A stretch of 64,000 bases of DNA from Escherichia coli 042 (GTDB lineage: Bacteria > Pseudomonadota > Gammaproteobacteria > Enterobacterales > Enterobacteriaceae), in assembly GCF_000027125.1 (NCBI RefSeq), contig NC_017626.1. The stretch is one strand, 5' to 3'. Position numbers and translations under genes: made by a program. This document shows, one piece after another, positions 7,387 through 43,021 of this stretch (the stretch's first letter is position 1; each line of letters starts with the position of its first letter). The notes under the pieces are model-generated. The model worked only from the letters and a program-made list of their open reading frames with translations. It made no database searches and had not been told where the DNA came from.

Positions 7387-7412
<26 letters not shown>

Positions 7413-8115
7413 GATGCCAGCGCAGCAAGTTTGCCATCGCAAAGATATATTTTTCGCTGGCTTCGTCGGAGGAGATGGGCGGAAACTCTGCGGTGATGCA
7501 ATGCAGGTTGAGATCCGCACACCAACTACCGAAAGAGCCAGGCGTTTCATAACCGACGCTGGTTACCAGAGGCAATTCAAACGCCTGGGCCAGCCATTCA
7601 CCTAATTCGCTGTGTCTGGGATCTTCAATACAGGCCAGCGGATCGTGGAATGAGACCACCCAGGCAGGTTGAATGCGGTGTATAAGCTGGCACAGCGCCT
7701 GGGTTTCAGGTTCGGAGCCAGGTTTGTCACCTGTCAGCAATACGACATCACGTTCTTCAGCGGCGCTGTTCCAGCGATAAACGGTTTCACCTTCCTTCCA
7801 GTTCGCCGCCGGAAAGTTTCTGTTTAAATCCACACCATTAGCATTGGCCCGTAACCCCAACTGGCAGCCGTCAGGATTCACACACAGCACCACATGATGA
7901 CGGCGCAAAGAAGGTGTCAACGTCCGCAGAGCACAGGAGAGCGTGACGACCGAAGAGTTTTCATCACCGTGAGTGCCAGCCAGAATCAAACCACTTTCGC
8001 GGCTGGCTGCAGGGGCAGGAAACCAGATTAACGGCGCGCCCAATAATGAACGTCCGTAATGTTCTGTTCCGGGCGGAAATGCGCCGCGTTCGGCGCGTGG
8101 GCGAGTTACGGTCAT
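7387..8115 (-). CDS. mpaA: Murein peptide amidase A (gamma-D-Glu-Dap amidase)
   Basis: Start taken at internal Met (MTVTRPRAERGAF..., 242 aa); zinc carboxypeptidase-like HGDE motif; convergent overlap with ycjG 3' end. Confidence 0.85.
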
Positions 8116-8405
8116 GATCGTCTCTGGTTCAGGAAGTATTACAGGCAGTGTTGTGCAAATTTTGCGGATTATCAAATCCTTTTCTTCAACGCTATGTCAT
8201 CGATCTTGTATCACTTTTTTGCCGGAAGTTGTTTGCATTTTCATTGATGTGCAGATATTAGAATTGTCGTAATGTTATATACATGGCGTATTTTATTCTT
8301 ACTGGTTCTACACATGTTAATCGCATCTGATTGATCAGTTCACCTTAATAAGTTTAATAAATCGTACTGCACATAGTACAGTACGATGGTAGCTATATAA
8401 TTGAT

Positions 8406-9044
8406 TTACATGAAGAATGGCTTATCGCCATCAGTCCCGGGTTGATTGATGCCTATATTCTCACCAATGTGTTTCTCAGGTTTATCGATGATATCTGTAA
8501 TTAATGCTGCGACACTCTTACGTGATACGATCGTACCTTTGAATGGTTCATTGCGTGAGGTAAGCTCATAATCAATAATATCTTCATCAGTCAGCCAGGC
8601 AGGGCGAAGAATTGTATATTCCAGTCCAGAAGCCTCAATTGCATCCGCAGCCCTGCGGAATGGTTTTAGGGGCTCACCAATAACTGCATTATTCCATTCG
8701 CCAAATTTTCCTGGAACTTCATCATAAATACCGAGGGAAAGAACAAAGATCAGACGTTTAACATCACAGGCTTTCATCGCAGCGATCACTGAATTTGCCT
8801 GAATATCTAAATCTTCCCCCGTAAGGTTGGCATACACAACATCCTGTCCCTGCATGGCCTGCTTCAGTGCTGCATGATTCAGTACATCCCCCATAATAAT
8901 CTTGCTATTAGTTGGATAGGGTTTGTGGATTTTTGCTGGCTGACGGGCAAATAAAGTTTGTTTAATGGTTTGTTTATCTGCCAGTTGATTAATCACATGG
9001 CGGGCTATCTGACCGCCAGCACCAAGAATCAGTACATTTTTCAT
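8406..9044 (-). CDS. NAD(P)-binding oxidoreductase, NmrA/atypical-SDR-like, apparently intact (K-12 carries only ymjC/ymjD remnants here, from memory)
   Basis: 212 aa, N-terminal Rossmann motif ILGAGGQIARHV. Confidence 0.6.
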   Translation of the reverse strand: MKNVLILGAGGQIARHVINQLADKQTIKQTLFARQPAKIHKPYPTNSKIIMGDVLNHAALKQAMQGQDVVYANLTGEDLDIQANSVIAAMKACDVKRLIFVLSLGIYDEVPGKFGEWNNAVIGEPLKPFRRAADAIEASGLEYTILRPAWLTDEDIIDYELTSRNEPFKGTIVSRKSVAALITDIIDKPEKHIGENIGINQPGTDGDKPFFM

Positions 9045-9114
9045 GAAACTTTTCCCAGATTATTGGCAGCAATATGCCAGGCCATATCACTATTACGGAT
9101 TTGAATATGTTTCA

Positions 9115-10035
9115 TTACAGAGTTTCCTCAAAGAACGGCGCTAATACTGAAATTGCTTCAGCCACATAGACTTTGCCGTCATAAAGAACCATATGGTTTG
9201 CGCCTTCAACAATGTGATAGCGTTTATCCTGGCTTGATGCTCGATCGTACAGGTCGTCACTCATCCATTTGCTCCCTGCCTGGCTGCCCGCCACAATCTG
9301 TATCGGCTGAGTCAGGTACACTTCCGCCATATGGTAAGCATCATAGGTAATAATCTGGTTAAGGCTGCGCAAAGTAGCGTAACCCGGTGCTGTTGGATAC
9401 TGCGCGCGAGGGGTGTGGTAATACTCCCAGGCCTGACGCAGTTCTTCGTTCGGCGCATCGGACTCCTTCATTGGTGCCAGTGGCATGGTGGCGTATTCTC
9501 CGCTGCTAATATCGCTGGTTCGGGCGTTTGAACCCGCGTCAACGTATGGTAGGGCATCAATAGATTTCACATTGTTTTCCCAACCATTACGGAACATCGA
9601 ACCAATATTGACCGCACTAACAGTACCGATGGCCTTGATGCGGCGATCCTGAATTGCAGCATTGGCTGTATATCCTGCACCGGCACAAATTCCCATCGCA
9701 CCAATTCGGCTATTGTCGACATAAGAAAGCGTTGTCAGATAATCAATCACGGCACTGACGTCTTCAGTACGAATGTATGGGTTTTCTAACTGACGCGGCT
9801 CGCCGCCGCTTTCACCTTGATAAGATGCGTCATAAGCAATAGTGACAAATCCCTTTTCCGCCAGTTTTTCGGCATAGGTTCCAGCCGTTTGCTCTTTAAC
9901 GCCCCCACCTGGGTGAGATACCACAATTGCCGGATACTGACGGGTTTCATCAAATTTTGGAGGGAAATAGATCACTGCAGACAAAGAGATGGTTGGATTA
10001 TTGCTGTTAGTGAAGCTGACTTTATTATTCATCAT
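9115..10035 (-). CDS. ycjY: Alpha/beta hydrolase family protein YcjY
   Basis: 306 aa from MMNNKVSF...; hydrolase-type GxCxG nucleophile elbow (GICAGAG). Confidence 0.8.
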   Translation of the reverse strand: MMNNKVSFTNSNNPTISLSAVIYFPPKFDETRQYPAIVVSHPGGGVKEQTAGTYAEKLAEKGFVTIAYDASYQGESGGEPRQLENPYIRTEDVSAVIDYLTTLSYVDNSRIGAMGICAGAGYTANAAIQDRRIKAIGTVSAVNIGSMFRNGWENNVKSIDALPYVDAGSNARTSDISSGEYATMPLAPMKESDAPNEELRQAWEYYHTPRAQYPTAPGYATLRSLNQIITYDAYHMAEVYLTQPIQIVAGSQAGSKWMSDDLYDRASSQDKRYHIVEGANHMVLYDGKVYVAEAISVLAPFFEETL

Positions 10036-10172
10036 TCCGTTCCTCATGGAGTTGTCGGTTCGTTTTAACGGTTGGTGATATCACTATAGATATTGATCAT
10101 TAAGTTGATTAGACCCAAAATCATGATTAGACCTATCATTTAAATGATTAATAGATTGTATGGAGATACTGA

Positions 10173-11072
10173 ATGAAGCGTGAAGAAATCGCTGATCTGA
10201 TGGCGTTTGTCGTCGTTGCAGAGGAGCGTAGCTTCACTCGCGCAGCAGCCCGCCTGAGCATGGCGCAGTCAGCTTTAAGCCAGATAGTGCGCCGTATAGA
10301 AGAACGATTGGGATTGCGGCTTCTGACACGAACCACGCGCAGCGTTGTACCCACTGAAGCGGGCGAGCATCTTTTGTCTGTTCTTGGCCCTATGTTGCAT
10401 GACATAGATTCTGCCCTGACATCCCTGAGCGATCTGCAGAACCGCCCATCCGGGACAATACGTATTACTACTGTAGAACATGCAGCAAAAACGATATTGT
10501 TACCAGCTATGCGCACATTCCTGAAATCGCATCCTGAAATTGATATCCAGCTTACCATTGATTATGGTTTGACCGATGTCGTTTCTGAACGTTTTGATGC
10601 AGGCGTCCGTCTGGGTGGGGAGATGGATAAAGATATGATCGCCATTCGAATCGGGCCAGATATACCAATGGCTATTGTTGGCTCACCGGATTATTTTTCT
10701 CGTCGAAGTGCTCCAACGTCAGTGTCACAATTAATAGATCATCAGGCAATTAATTTGTATCTTCCCACATCGGGTACAGCAAATCGCTGGAGATTAATAC
10801 GCGGTGGACGTGAAGTTCGTGTTCGCATGGAAGGTCAGCTTTTACTGAATACGATAGACCTGATCATTGATGCTGCAATTGATGGGCATGGATTGGCGTA
10901 TCTACCTTATGATCAGGTTGAGCGGGCTATTAAAGAAAAAAAACTGATACGTGTTTTGGATAAATTCACACCAGATTTACCCGGTTATCACCTGTACTAT
11001 CCACACCGTCGACATGCTGGCTCGGCATTCTCATTATTTATAGATAGGCTGAAGTATAAAGGTGCTGTTTAG
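10173..11072 (+). CDS. ycjZ: LysR-family transcriptional regulator
   Basis: 299 aa, N-terminal HTH (FTRAAARLSMAQSALSQ), divergent from ycjY. Confidence 0.85.
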   Translation: MKREEIADLMAFVVVAEERSFTRAAARLSMAQSALSQIVRRIEERLGLRLLTRTTRSVVPTEAGEHLLSVLGPMLHDIDSALTSLSDLQNRPSGTIRITTVEHAAKTILLPAMRTFLKSHPEIDIQLTIDYGLTDVVSERFDAGVRLGGEMDKDMIAIRIGPDIPMAIVGSPDYFSRRSAPTSVSQLIDHQAINLYLPTSGTANRWRLIRGGREVRVRMEGQLLLNTIDLIIDAAIDGHGLAYLPYDQVERAIKEKKLIRVLDKFTPDLPGYHLYYPHRRHAGSAFSLFIDRLKYKGAV

Positions 11073-11408
11073 CACTACTTGCTGATACATTAATTTAATT
11101 CTTCTCTTAACGTATTCTCAGTTCCTTTCAACGTTTTGGTCATTTTTTATTCTTCGTACAATGGCGACAGATGCTGATTATGATACCGAAAACGGGTTTG
11201 AACGTGCGAAGCCCGAACGTAGTGTTCGGAGTTCTATGTGCTTTACCGCATTTTGGAGACTATTATTTACACTAAATCTGATTTGATATATTGATACTTA
11301 AAACATTTGATGCTTCCTTTGTCACTTTTTTGATGGAAGTTGTTTGCATTTCTTTAAGGCGAAACAAATAATTACGCATCAATTTTAATGTCGGTTAGAG
11401 GGAAACTT

Positions 11409-42334: not shown

Positions 42335-43021
42335 ATGACCCCAATAAAAATATTTATGACTATTGCTGATTTCAAACGGCCTAAATTGGAGCTCCCAAAC
42401 GGGGCAAACAAACTACTACTGCACTCTTGCTGTGCTCCATGTTCCGGTGAAGTGATGGAGGCGCTTCAGGCCTCGGGAATCGACTATACCATCTTTTTCT
42501 ACAACCCGAACATTCATCCTCAGAAAGAGTATTTAATTCGTAAGGATGAGAATATTCGCTTTGCTGAACAACACGGCGTGCCATTTATTGATGCTGATTA
42601 CGACACAGACAACTGGTTTGAACGTGCCAAAGGAATGGAATGGGAGCCCGAGAGGGGGATCCGTTGTACCATGTGTTTTGACATGCGTTTTGAGCGGACA
42701 GCGCTGTACGCTGCTGAAAATGGTTTCAGTGTGATCAGCAGTTCACTGGGCATTTCACGCTGGAAAAATATGCAGCAGGTTAACGACTGTGGGCGGCGAG
42801 CCGTCGCGCATTATCCGGGCATGGTGTACTGGGATTATAACTGGCGCAAGCAGGGCGGCTCGTCCCGCATGATTGAAATCAGCAAGCGCGAAAAATTCTA
42901 TCAGCAGGAATATTGTGGCTGTGTGTATTCTCTGCGCGATACCAATCTACACCGCAAATCTCAGGGACGCCCTCTTATCAAAATTGGTCAACTCCACTAC
43001 GGTAAAGAAGAGAAGGAGTGA
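42335..43021 (+). CDS. DUF208 / epoxyqueuosine reductase QueH-like protein (putative Fe-S enzyme)
   Basis: 228 aa with Cys motifs [14 protein letters not shown] and EYCGCVYS, as remembered for the QueH family. Confidence 0.55.

Follow-up and report, generated by a model that had tools for sequence, protein, structure and literature searches.

An intact orthologue of K-12 ymjC in Escherichia coli 042, the last gene of a horizontally acquired cassette that has decayed stepwise

The 64,000-nucleotide stretch of Escherichia coli 042 analysed here (contig NC_017626.1; 'the window') carries an intact gene for an atypical short-chain dehydrogenase/reductase (SDR), of which E. coli K-12 retains only a truncated form, ymjC. 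It stands last in a self-regulated cassette, in which pgrR is divergent from ycjY, the hydrolase gene hyd2 and the SDR gene. The cassette was acquired horizontally and inserted into the native divergent mpaA/mppA promoter region. Within E. coli it has decayed by loss of hyd2 followed by truncation of the SDR gene, and the window represents the intermediate. The protein itself is probably an NADPH-dependent reductase. We give this reading as a whole, an ymjC orthologue that acts as an NADPH reductase and belongs to a horizontally acquired, stepwise decaying cassette, a probability of about three in four. The gene is already known: RefSeq annotates it, it is named ymjC as a CDS in O157 Sakai, and a crystal structure exists.

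The intact gene, its K-12 remnants and the order of decay

The features of the mpaA–ycjY interval are as follows.

8406..9044, minus strand: intact NAD(P)H-binding atypical SDR gene, 212 aa, full-length orthologue of K-12 ymjC (ORF and translation, Pfam, PDB, annotation)
8246..8905, no strand: 660-bp segment absent from K-12 MG1655, made up of 500 nt at the 3' end of the SDR gene and the 160 nt that follow, with the hairpin among them (window compared with NC_000913.3 by blastn)
9041..9115, minus strand: ymjD-like 24-codon ORF, in-frame deletion remnant of hyd2 (junction analysis; translation MKHIQIRNSDMAWHIAANNLGKVS, then stop)

The gene order in the window is mpaA (7387-8115, minus strand), SDR, ycjY (9115-10035, minus strand). 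The SDR ORF has an ATG start and 212 codons plus the stop, and its product begins MKNVLILGAGGQIARHV, within which lies the glycine-rich dinucleotide-binding motif G8-A-G-G11-Q-I-A14. Residues 8-189 match the entire Pfam NAD_binding_10 profile (PF13460; positions 1-184 of 184, E = 3e-54, 184.1 bits against a cutoff of 27.2), 209 of the 212 residues are identical to those of PDB entry 3QVO, and RefSeq labels the 100%-identical CDS of strain KK19-02 'SDR family oxidoreductase'. It is therefore not a chance ORF, and the original prediction of a 212-residue protein with an NAD(P)-binding motif, encoded between mpaA and ycjY, is borne out; it named no strand, and the strand is minus.

That prediction also held that K-12 has only pseudogene fragments, ymjC and ymjD, at this position. 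The mpaA–ycjY interval of MG1655 does lack an identical intact gene, the equivalent of window positions 8246-8905 being missing, and contains just ymjC (183 nt; b4525) and ymjD (66 nt; b4673); however, current RefSeq treats both as short CDSs with no pseudogene label, and ymjD derives from hyd2. K-12 ymjC uses the SDR start codon and is identical over the first 46 residues, after which it reads through the 660-bp deletion junction (GCATTTT joined to ATTAGTTGG); of the 212 codons it has lost 166, and its final 14 residues are unrelated. Window positions 8906-9044 are 99.3% identical to K-12 ymjC and the flanks are collinear, as orthology demands. ymjD consists of the first 18 codons of hyd2, a 310-aa hydrolase gene, fused in frame to its last codons, and the window ORF shares its first 18 residues with the undeleted Hyd2 of strain ECO2947. 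The window ORF begins with an ATG that overlaps the stop codon of ycjY (TAATG) and ends with a TGA that overlaps the SDR start codon (ATGA). K-12 ymjD corresponds to window positions 9050-9115 and has 21 codons compared with 24 in the window, where AAA replaces the K-12 TAA. ymjC and ymjD are thus relics of two different genes.

Frequencies were counted in 5426 complete E. coli genomes. The series starts from the full ycjY-hyd2-SDR arrangement, as in O157 Sakai, which is found in about 1270 genomes (hyd2 is carried by 1272-1283). An 867-nt in-frame deletion then converted hyd2 to ymjD, with a 12-nt difference at the SDR start, giving the form seen in the window (about 1650 genomes), and an added 660-bp deletion converted the SDR gene to the ymjC of K-12 (junction in 2293 genomes). 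The ymjD junction is present in 3947 genomes, the SDR region is covered in 2894, and the whole cassette is absent, leaving an empty site, in 166. The K-12 junction is confined to the hyd2-deleted background, and a chimeric query found no true genome among the 5426 that combines it with hyd2. Since the K-12 junction occurs only with the earlier hyd2 deletion, and since full-length orthologues of 211-216 aa exist in many genera, the intact gene is ancestral to the K-12 form. The original suggestion of an ancestral gene therefore stands relative to K-12 and within the history of the cassette in Escherichia; it does not extend to the native enterobacterial site, where mpaA and mppA are adjacent without the SDR gene.

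The SDR gene has been inactivated independently within E. coli by an IS5 insertion, an IS1 insertion, frameshifts and the 660-bp deletion, and the allele clusters include a 171-aa frameshift allele (388 members) and a 162-aa N-truncated allele (332 members). As many lineages have inactivated it independently, the gene may be dispensable in E. coli. Three sequences considered as orthologues from other Escherichia species, P0008 (91% identity), P0004 (92%) and P0071 (86%), were rejected; they are ordinary E. coli alleles (frameshifts or a 36-bp duplication) or come from an error-rich MAG. Overall, gene decay that varies between strains in this way is routine: the gene is truncated in the K-12 lineage and intact in many E. 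coli.

A cassette in the mpaA/mppA promoter region

The remaining parts of the cassette and its boundaries are listed here.

9115..10035, minus strand: ycjY, which opens the cassette operon and encodes an alpha/beta hydrolase of 306 aa whose cysteine nucleophile lies in a GxCxG motif (PDB 5XB6, Pfam)
10173..11072, plus strand: pgrR (ycjZ), LysR-type regulator divergent from ycjY that travels with the cassette (Pfam HTH_1 and LysR_substrate)
10135..10148, no strand: palindrome ATCA-N6-TGAT, ATCATTTAAATGAT, candidate PgrR operator in the ycjY/pgrR divergent region (conservation; unique in the window)
8361..8389, minus strand: hairpin 17 nt past the stop codon of the SDR gene, then a U-rich run (RNA fold, 12-bp stem)
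11170..11256, plus strand: queH-like gene relic within the cassette, at its right end (96.6% identity to annotated copies)
8204..8240, plus strand: left direct-repeat copy flanking the cassette, core 8212-8240 (repeat search)
11315..11351, plus strand: right direct-repeat copy, overlapping the promoter-like -35 element of mppA (repeat search)

The ycjY product aligns from end to end with PDB 5XB6 (E = 2.6e-199), from which it differs at 12 of 306 positions, and matches the Pfam families DLH, Peptidase_S15 and Hydrolase_4. Cys117 of the GxCxG motif and His281 show no variation in 35 homologues. YcjY and Hyd2 are tandem paralogues with 41% identity. A divergent LysR homologue lies beside hydrolase or SDR genes at 17 loci and is 71-87% identical to PgrR in Pseudocitrobacter, Afipia, Mesorhizobium and Hyphomicrobium, and 32-45% identical at the others. 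The ATCA-N6-TGAT palindrome is kept in the cassettes of E. coli, Pseudocitrobacter, Salmonella/K. aerogenes, Afipia, Mesorhizobium and Hyphomicrobium, and the stem of the hairpin is held by compensatory changes in those of Salmonella/K. aerogenes and Pseudocitrobacter. A consensus scan for promoters and terminators gave nothing above shuffled background; a promoter-like TTTGCA-18-AATAAT lies at 11343-11372 (mppA). The queH-like relic is annotated by RefSeq in other strains as 'epoxyqueuosine reductase QueH, incomplete'.

The two copies of the direct repeat (37 nt, 86% identity, spacing 3111) share a 29-nt core that has two matches in the window compared with none expected. The repeat is native sequence, and Citrobacter and the empty-site E. 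coli each have it once. In Citrobacter and another enterobacterium (outgroup sites reached via MpaA homologues) mppA adjoins mpaA with no cassette, and the two genes are likewise adjacent in the 166 empty-site E. coli genomes. Comparison across the Enterobacteriaceae, which had been proposed as a check, shows the cassette in Pseudocitrobacter and in Salmonella/K. aerogenes, and an empty site in Citrobacter. No SDR of another Escherichia, Salmonella or Citrobacter was among the 80 loci listed in a scan of GTDB representatives. Escherichia sp. E4742 is 85-90% identical to the window in the flanking genes and 97-99% in the cassette, a difference that suggests horizontal spread within the genus.

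By these measures, absence from the native site in relatives, flanking direct repeats and other contexts elsewhere, the cassette behaves as an islet, although one without mobility genes of its own. It contains no integrase, transposase or terminal inverted repeats, and the only long ORFs between the repeats are SDR, ycjY and pgrR. A cassette-wide tandem duplication or a transposon was rejected because inverted repeats and mobility genes are lacking.

The LysR/YcjY/Hyd2/SDR set recurs in Alpha-, Beta- and Gammaproteobacteria. In Pseudocitrobacter YcjY, Hyd2 and SDR are 93, 85 and 83% identical respectively, and the set is also found in Afipia, Mesorhizobium, Hyphomicrobium, Stenotrophomonas, Paraburkholderia, Caballeronia and Achromobacter. 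The cassette of Salmonella and K. aerogenes is located near proBA and continues into an adh_short and an Old Yellow Enzyme gene; no traces of these two genes were found at the end of the E. coli cassette. Bacteroidota have Hyd2-SDR with an AraC regulator, and the SDR homologues of Lactobacillaceae have no hydrolase neighbour. Neighbours in other taxa include Oxidored_FMN, Flavodoxin_2, nitroreductase and HxlR genes, a set typical of electrophile or quinone detoxification.

Structure and proposed function of the SDR

The SDR falls in the NAD_binding_10 group of atypical short-chain dehydrogenases/reductases and has the fold of BLVRB and ChuY: it matches the profile over its full length and is a single Rossmann-fold domain of about 200 aa with a glycine-rich motif. 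In a Pfam profile search it gave no adh_short match, which sets it apart from the classical SDRs, and YxxxK is absent from the canonical position, where the segment ahead of the LEYTILRP strand reads PFRRAADAIE. The AlphaFold model (pLDDT 87) has a strand at residues 2-7 and a helix at 12-21, followed by further alternating strands and helices. It superimposes on 3QVO and on the Veillonella SDRs 4IPT, 3R6D and 4HNH with a TM score of 0.88, on ChuY with 0.83 and on BLVRB with about 0.8, and a PDB profile search returned the relatives in the same order.

3QVO (Shigella flexneri, 'Rossmann-fold NAD(P)-binding family protein', 2011) is essentially the same protein. It differs by three substitutions, one of which, G115V in the Shigella protein, is at a family-invariant position; no papers citing the entry code were found in the literature searched. 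The family has 42-43 invariant positions (27-78 homologues, down to 47% identity), including G8, G11, R34, YANL71-74, G105, Y107, E109, GKFG-WN (112-118, with K113), R147-P148, W150-L151 and R175, and the window protein keeps all of them. Arg34 is the same in 78 homologues, and fold relatives have been crystallized with NADP, according to the structure titles. Comparison with other genera gives a dN/dS of 0.04-0.05; within E. coli the value is 0.14, based on just nine differences.

Human BLVRB, the biliverdin-IX-beta/flavin reductase (1HDO, 1HE3), resembles the SDR in being a single domain of ∼ 205 aa of the same Pfam group with an N-terminal NADP(H) site, and it functions without a YxxxK dyad. 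However, identity is only about 20%, and the loop on the substrate side, G112-KFGEWNN-119, is peculiar to the bacterial proteins. The anaerobilin reductase ChuY/ShuY (5FFQ, 5GUY), from the haem-utilization locus of E. coli and Shigella, shares fold and size and is an NADPH-dependent reductase encoded in an accessory operon; it too is only about 20% identical, and is adjoined by haem uptake genes, whereas the SDR is adjoined by hydrolases.

From the fold relatives and gene neighbours, which are the sole basis for both the reductase step and the substrate class, we infer that the SDR is likely to be an NADPH reductase of the BLVRB/ChuY kind. Its partners would be two cysteine hydrolases, and the substrate would be a lactone, an ester or an electrophile. 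NADPH would be held by the N-terminal Rossmann motif and the invariant Arg34, and hydride would pass directly to a bound small molecule without the classical YxxxK dyad. What the enzyme reduces is probably a compound that the two DLH-type hydrolases make or consume, for example an unsaturated keto-acid, quinone or enone freed from a lactone or ester, and PgrR would control the cassette in response to that compound. A similar logic is found in chlorocatechol pathways, where a divergent LysR regulator governs two steps: a DLH-type hydrolase with a cysteine nucleophile acts first, and the unsaturated product of ring opening is then reduced with NAD(P)H. The likeness (dienelactone hydrolase plus maleylacetate reductase) is a functional analogy only; maleylacetate reductases belong to a different protein family, and no catechol dioxygenase or cycloisomerase genes are present. 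In the window the three-enzyme pathway is incomplete, as hyd2 has already been deleted, and the SDR is probably still expressed through translational coupling to ycjY via the 24-codon ymjD' ORF. The literature searched contained no substrate or activity for SDR, YcjY or Hyd2. Lactic-acid resistance has been reported to associate with 'ymjC' (PMC9602453), a link set aside here because the pangenome label could denote either the truncated or the intact gene.

Alternative explanations and implications

It is possible, but on balance doubtful, that the window SDR is intact in sequence while functionally decaying, its role having gone with hyd2, and is a pseudogene-to-be that has not yet been hit. 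The restriction of the 2293 K-12-type deletions to the hyd2-deleted background, the further knock-outs (IS5, IS1, the 171-aa frameshift and 162-aa N-truncated alleles) and the loss of invariant Gly115 in the crystallized Shigella protein all point in this direction. Against it, every family-invariant residue is present in the window protein, translational coupling links its start codon to the ORFs upstream, the E. coli dN/dS stands at 0.14 (on the same nine differences), and the Lactobacillaceae homologues without a hydrolase neighbour imply that the enzyme can work alone.

The original prediction called the protein NmrA-like, as did the depositors of 3QVO ('NmrA family protein'). The depositors' name and the absence of YxxxK from the canonical position would fit a non-catalytic NmrA-type NAD(P) sensor that modulates a transcription factor such as PgrR. 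The NmrA profile (PF05368) does score above threshold (E = 1.3e-10), and NmrA proteins share the Rossmann N-terminal half and the lack of a classical SDR dyad. The label is loose, however, since the match covers only the N-terminal Rossmann part (residues 2-100; profile positions 3-104 of 298, one third of the profile); at 212 aa the SDR is about 100 residues shorter and has no C-terminal NmrA domain, and the family matched at full length is NAD_binding_10. A sensor role is very improbable given also that the nearest folds are the enzymes BLVRB and ChuY, that the non-cofactor loop G112-N119 is strongly conserved and that regulators of three unrelated kinds (LysR, AraC and HxlR) accompany members of the family.

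The name PgrR, like the operon name ycjY-ymjD-ymjC-mpaA used for K-12, would suggest an accessory enzyme of peptidoglycan recycling that acts together with MpaA and MppA; such a role is very improbable. The gene does lie between mpaA and mppA, ycjY-ymjDC-mpaA and ycjG appear in the PgrR regulon as listed in PMC5934670 (citing Shimada 2013), and over-expression of YcjY leads to filamentation (PMC3614548). However, the native mpaA/mppA locus of Citrobacter, another enterobacterium and 166 E. coli has no cassette genes, neither mpaA nor mppA accompanies the cassette in any other genus examined, Salmonella and K. aerogenes with their copies near proBA among them, and its neighbours in other taxa are reductases, not cell-wall enzymes. 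Finally, a ycjY-SDR order as the original state, with the O157-type hyd2 a later tandem duplication of ycjY and ymjD an unrelated ORF, is refuted: the paralogues are indeed in tandem, but they are just 41% identical, the two-hydrolase order is kept as orthologous pairs in Alpha-, Beta- and Gammaproteobacteria, and ymjD has the first 18 and the last codons of hyd2.

The origins of ymjC and ymjD, the order and frequency of the decay steps and the cassette nature of ycjY, pgrR and SDR are of modest value for annotation. We tentatively suggest, as a possibility that we rate below even odds, that the link between PgrR/YcjY and peptidoglycan recycling is an evolutionary accident: a mobile, self-regulated hydrolase-reductase cassette for detoxification or catabolism landed in the mpaA/mppA promoter region, and the 660-bp deletion of the K-12 lineage, by taking the SDR 3' end and the conserved hairpin, would have brought mpaA into one transcription unit with the cassette operon. 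In that case the 'ycjY-ymjD-ymjC-mpaA operon' and the regulation of mpaA by PgrR would be traits of the deleted lineages (42% of genomes) and not of window- or O157-type strains. That ycjY, pgrR and SDR form a horizontally spread cassette inserted in this region makes it less safe to annotate YcjY and PgrR by association as peptidoglycan recycling proteins, and directs experimenters to lactone, ester or electrophile substrates instead.

The SDR gene and its truncation in K-12

The original prediction placed a 212-aa ORF with a glycine-rich NAD(P) motif between mpaA and ycjY. Translation of the window confirmed the ORF (hereafter SDR), its N-terminus MKNVLILGAGGQIARHV forms the glycine-rich dinucleotide-binding motif, and the gene order is tyrR, tpx, ycjG, mpaA, SDR, ycjY, pgrR (ycjZ), mppA.

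8406-9044, minus strand: SDR, 212 codons, ATG start

Pfam NAD_binding_10 matches SDR across its entire profile (E 3e-54, 184 bits). The description 'NmrA-like' holds for the N-terminal Rossmann half, to which the partial NmrA (E 1.3e-10) and Epimerase (E 1.6e-07) matches are confined, but the full-profile family is NAD_binding_10. Other Rossmann families gave weak sub-threshold Pfam matches, and NCBIfam held no specific family for the protein. The gene is already known, having been annotated, named and crystallized: its CDS is called 'SDR family oxidoreductase' in strain KK19-02 (100% identical) and ymjC, 'NAD-dependent epimerase/dehydratase', in O157:H7 Sakai, and 209 of the 212 residues are identical in PDB 3QVO (Foldseek title 'Structure of a Rossmann-fold NAD(P)-binding family protein from Shigella flexneri', released 2011). 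The crystallized Shigella flexneri protein has Val115 where 78/78 aligned homologues have Gly, and the structure may for this reason represent a slightly damaged allele. After KK19-02, the window's nearest relatives are strains at 99.6% identity, among them an isolate of O102:H6, a serotype characteristic of ST405 (phylogroup D).

In K-12 MG1655 the mpaA-ycjY interval contains two short genes and nothing more, ymjC (183 nt) and ymjD (66 nt). By blastn, K-12 and the window are collinear apart from window 8246-8905, which K-12 lacks; these 660 bp comprise the 3' 500 nt of SDR and 160 nt further downstream (K-12 junction GCATTTT/ATTAGTTGG, the slash marking the deletion). K-12 ymjC shares its start codon (ATG) with SDR and retains only residues 1-46, followed by 14 unrelated codons past the junction. 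Because ymjC is truncated across this junction, K-12 carries no intact copy, as had been anticipated. Of the two K-12 fragments named in the prediction, ymjC is indeed the truncated SDR gene, but ymjD is what remains of another gene, hyd2. The truncation is an ordinary lineage-specific deletion, and the original interpretation is supported, with corrections.

Stepwise decay among E. coli genomes

In O157 Sakai and many other strains, window 9045-9057 is replaced by 893 (or 892) extra bases that encode a second alpha/beta hydrolase, hyd2. Sakai has a frameshifted hyd2; in other strains, ECO2947 among them, the CDS is intact (310 aa). The window has a short ORF here.

9041-9115, minus strand: ymjD-like ORF, 24 codons, translation MKHIQIRNSDMAWHIAANNLGKVS followed by a stop

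Its first 18 codons are common to hyd2 and K-12 ymjD, after which both short ORFs run into the last codons of hyd2, giving ...NLG. Since both ends are common to hyd2, ymjD is an 867-nt in-frame deletion product of that gene. The window and K-12 forms also lack 12 nt (ATGAGAAATATT) at the SDR start, which explains the 216-aa forms (MRNIMKNV...) in other genomes. The former TAA stop of ymjD reads AAA in the window, which extends the small ORF to a TGA overlapping the SDR start (ATGA); at its other end, the ATG of the small ORF and the ycjY stop share bases (TAATG). The window thus already represents a partly decayed state.

Forms of the locus among 5426 complete E. coli genomes
At least 80% coverage of the SDR region: 2894 genomes
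hyd2 present: 1272-1283 genomes (about 23%)
K-12-type junction: 2293 genomes
ymjD (hyd2-deletion) junction: 3947 genomes
Empty site, mpaA and mppA adjacent: 166 genomes, ST648 strains among them

Genomes of the window type (hyd2 deleted, no K-12-type junction) number about 1650 (3947 minus 2293). The order of the deletions was tested with a chimeric query, 'K-12 junction plus hyd2', and no more than two genomes attained the 80% coverage threshold: a strain bearing hyd2, where the match is split in two over 865 bp, and a K-12-type strain whose match aligns poorly at its right-hand end (93.7% identity). As we read neither as a true chimera, the K-12 deletion appears to be nested within a hyd2-deleted background, and the events would have run from full cassette (pgrR divergent from ycjY-hyd2-SDR) to window type to K-12 type. 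The predicted 'ancestral intact gene' is therefore ancestral in that the window type precedes the K-12 type, but the cassette was itself inserted at the native mpaA/mppA site. SDR has further been knocked out independently by IS5 and IS1 insertions, in a 171-aa frameshift allele and a 162-aa truncated allele, and by a 36-bp duplication and a double frameshift. Such repeated inactivation makes it a serious, non-exclusive possibility that SDR is intact but dispensable in the window's lineage.

A horizontally distributed cassette at the mpaA/mppA site

Three Citrobacter genomes and another enterobacterium have mppA and mpaA adjacent, divergent and about 184 bp apart, and the 166 empty-site E. coli genomes share this arrangement. 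In the window the cassette is a 3111-bp unit (8241-11351) bounded by an imperfect direct repeat.

8204-8240 and 11315-11351: direct repeat flanking the pgrR-ycjY-ymjD'-SDR block, 37 nt, 86% identity
11170-11256: incomplete QueH (epoxyqueuosine reductase) fragment, 31 codons, between pgrR and the right repeat, from annotation in other strains

The 29-nt repeat core, CACTTTTTTG(CC/AT)GGAAGTTGTTTGCATTT, differs at 2 positions between copies (chance expectation 0 matches). Empty sites and Citrobacter have one homologous copy and the cassettes of other genera have none, which suggests that the repeat is duplicated native sequence. A search of the window's cassette for an integrase, a transposase or terminal inverted repeats found none. 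It was in the native promoter region of mpaA and mppA that the cassette inserted. A full 228-aa QueH/DUF208-like ORF lies at window 42335-43021, 31 kb from the QueH fragment, with which it has 38 nt in common (89% identity).

The divergent lineage Escherichia sp. E4742 (GCA_005781185.1, locus L101, 3729-7897) has the full cassette at the same site. Its flanking genes are 88% (tyrR), 85% (ycjG), 86% (mpaA) and 90% (mppA) identical to the window and its cassette 97-99%, which indicates lateral exchange at one chromosomal site more recently than the lineage split.

Full-length SDR relatives turned up in 80 loci when one genome per prokaryotic species was scanned, and the neighbours in these loci were compared with those of E. 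coli by tblastn.

Identity of cassette proteins to E. coli
Pseudocitrobacter: YcjY 93%, Hyd2 85%, SDR 83%, PgrR 87%
Afipia: YcjY 84%, Hyd2 63%, SDR 69%, PgrR 73%
Mesorhizobium: YcjY 82%, Hyd2 82%, SDR 69%, PgrR 71%

The arrangement LysR / YcjY - Hyd2 - SDR also occurs in Hyphomicrobium, Stenotrophomonas, Paraburkholderia, Caballeronia and Achromobacter; the order is SDR-Hyd2 in Paracoccus, Rhizobium and Shinella, and in Bacteroidota an AraC regulator precedes Hyd2-SDR. Salmonella enterica and Klebsiella aerogenes (loci L088-L091, 4092-9711) have a long cassette near proBA, with LysR, YcjY, Hyd2, SDR, adh_short and Old Yellow Enzyme. These cassettes adjoin variable anti-phage (CBASS-/Pycsar-like) genes, either AGS_C/PycTM or SMODS/SLATT. 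In Lactobacillaceae the homologues (about 50% identity) have no hydrolases beside them and adjoin HxlR regulators, nitroreductases and GNAT genes. The SDR gene thus belongs to a horizontally distributed cassette.

10135-10148: palindrome ATCATTTAAATGAT (ATCA-N6-TGAT), ycjY/pgrR divergent region

This candidate PgrR operator is conserved from E. coli to Alphaproteobacteria, which suggests that the regulator and its likely operator travel with the enzymes. YcjY has been labelled 'putative peptidoglycan degradation' in the literature, by association only. A peptidoglycan-recycling role for SDR is argued against by the cassettes of every other genus examined, which occur without mpaA or mppA, and by the native mpaA/mppA site, which is empty of the cassette.

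Probable function and the mpaA operon

The AlphaFold model of SDR (pLDDT 87) superposes on 3QVO and the Veillonella parvula SDRs 4IPT, 3R6D and 4HNH (TM 0.88), and resembles the anaerobilin reductase ChuY (TM 0.83) and human BLVRB (TM about 0.8); sequence-profile searches ranked the same proteins. Alignments of 27-78 homologues, down to 47% identity, have 42-43 invariant positions, including G8 and G11 of the cofactor motif, Arg34, YANL71-74, G105, Y107, E109, the loop G112-K-F-G-x-W-N118, R147-P148, W150-L151, E160, T162 and R175. Between genera, dN/dS is 0.04-0.05. SDR would bind NADPH, to judge from Arg34, which follows strand 2, and from fold relatives in complex with NADP. Like BLVRB, it may reduce a small molecule through direct transfer of hydride, with no YxxxK dyad. 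A non-catalytic NmrA-type sensor is unlikely, since the match covers just a third of the NmrA profile, the nearest folds are enzymes and the family is paired with three unrelated regulator types.

YcjY (9115-10035; PDB 5XB6) and Hyd2 (3018-3950 in L084, a locus from another genome) share a GxCxG motif in which Cys117 is invariant, as is His281. Dienelactone hydrolases have this nucleophile arrangement, and the two proteins are probably cysteine hydrolases of that type, not serine hydrolases. That hyd2 is a recent duplication of ycjY is refuted by an identity of only 41% between the proteins and by a two-hydrolase order conserved in distant phyla. Recurrent neighbours of the SDR family are cysteine hydrolases, Old Yellow Enzymes, flavodoxin-like reductases and nitroreductases under LysR, AraC or HxlR control, which suggest an unsaturated carbonyl, quinone or similar electrophile as the most likely candidate substrate, possibly released by lactone or ester hydrolysis. 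A literature search for experimental activity of SDR, YcjY or Hyd2 found none.

8361-8389, minus-strand RNA: hairpin with a 12-bp stem, 17 nt past the SDR stop, and a U-rich run behind it

Folding the 111-nt segment around this hairpin gives an unexceptional energy (z -1.5). In the cassettes of Salmonella/K. aerogenes and of Pseudocitrobacter, compensatory substitutions preserve the stem, and the hairpin is followed by adh_short, a gene absent from E. coli; AAGGTGAACTG after the hairpin is the ribosome-binding region of adh_short in those cassettes. K-12 has a published operon, ycjY-ymjD-ymjC-mpaA, under the control of PgrR (PMC5934670). Since the conserved hairpin lies within the 660 bp deleted in K-12, this operon and its PgrR control may be a consequence of the deletion, not ancestral design. 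While revealing no new kind of system, the analysis of the cassette and its insertion refines the annotation of ymjC, ymjD, ycjY and pgrR.
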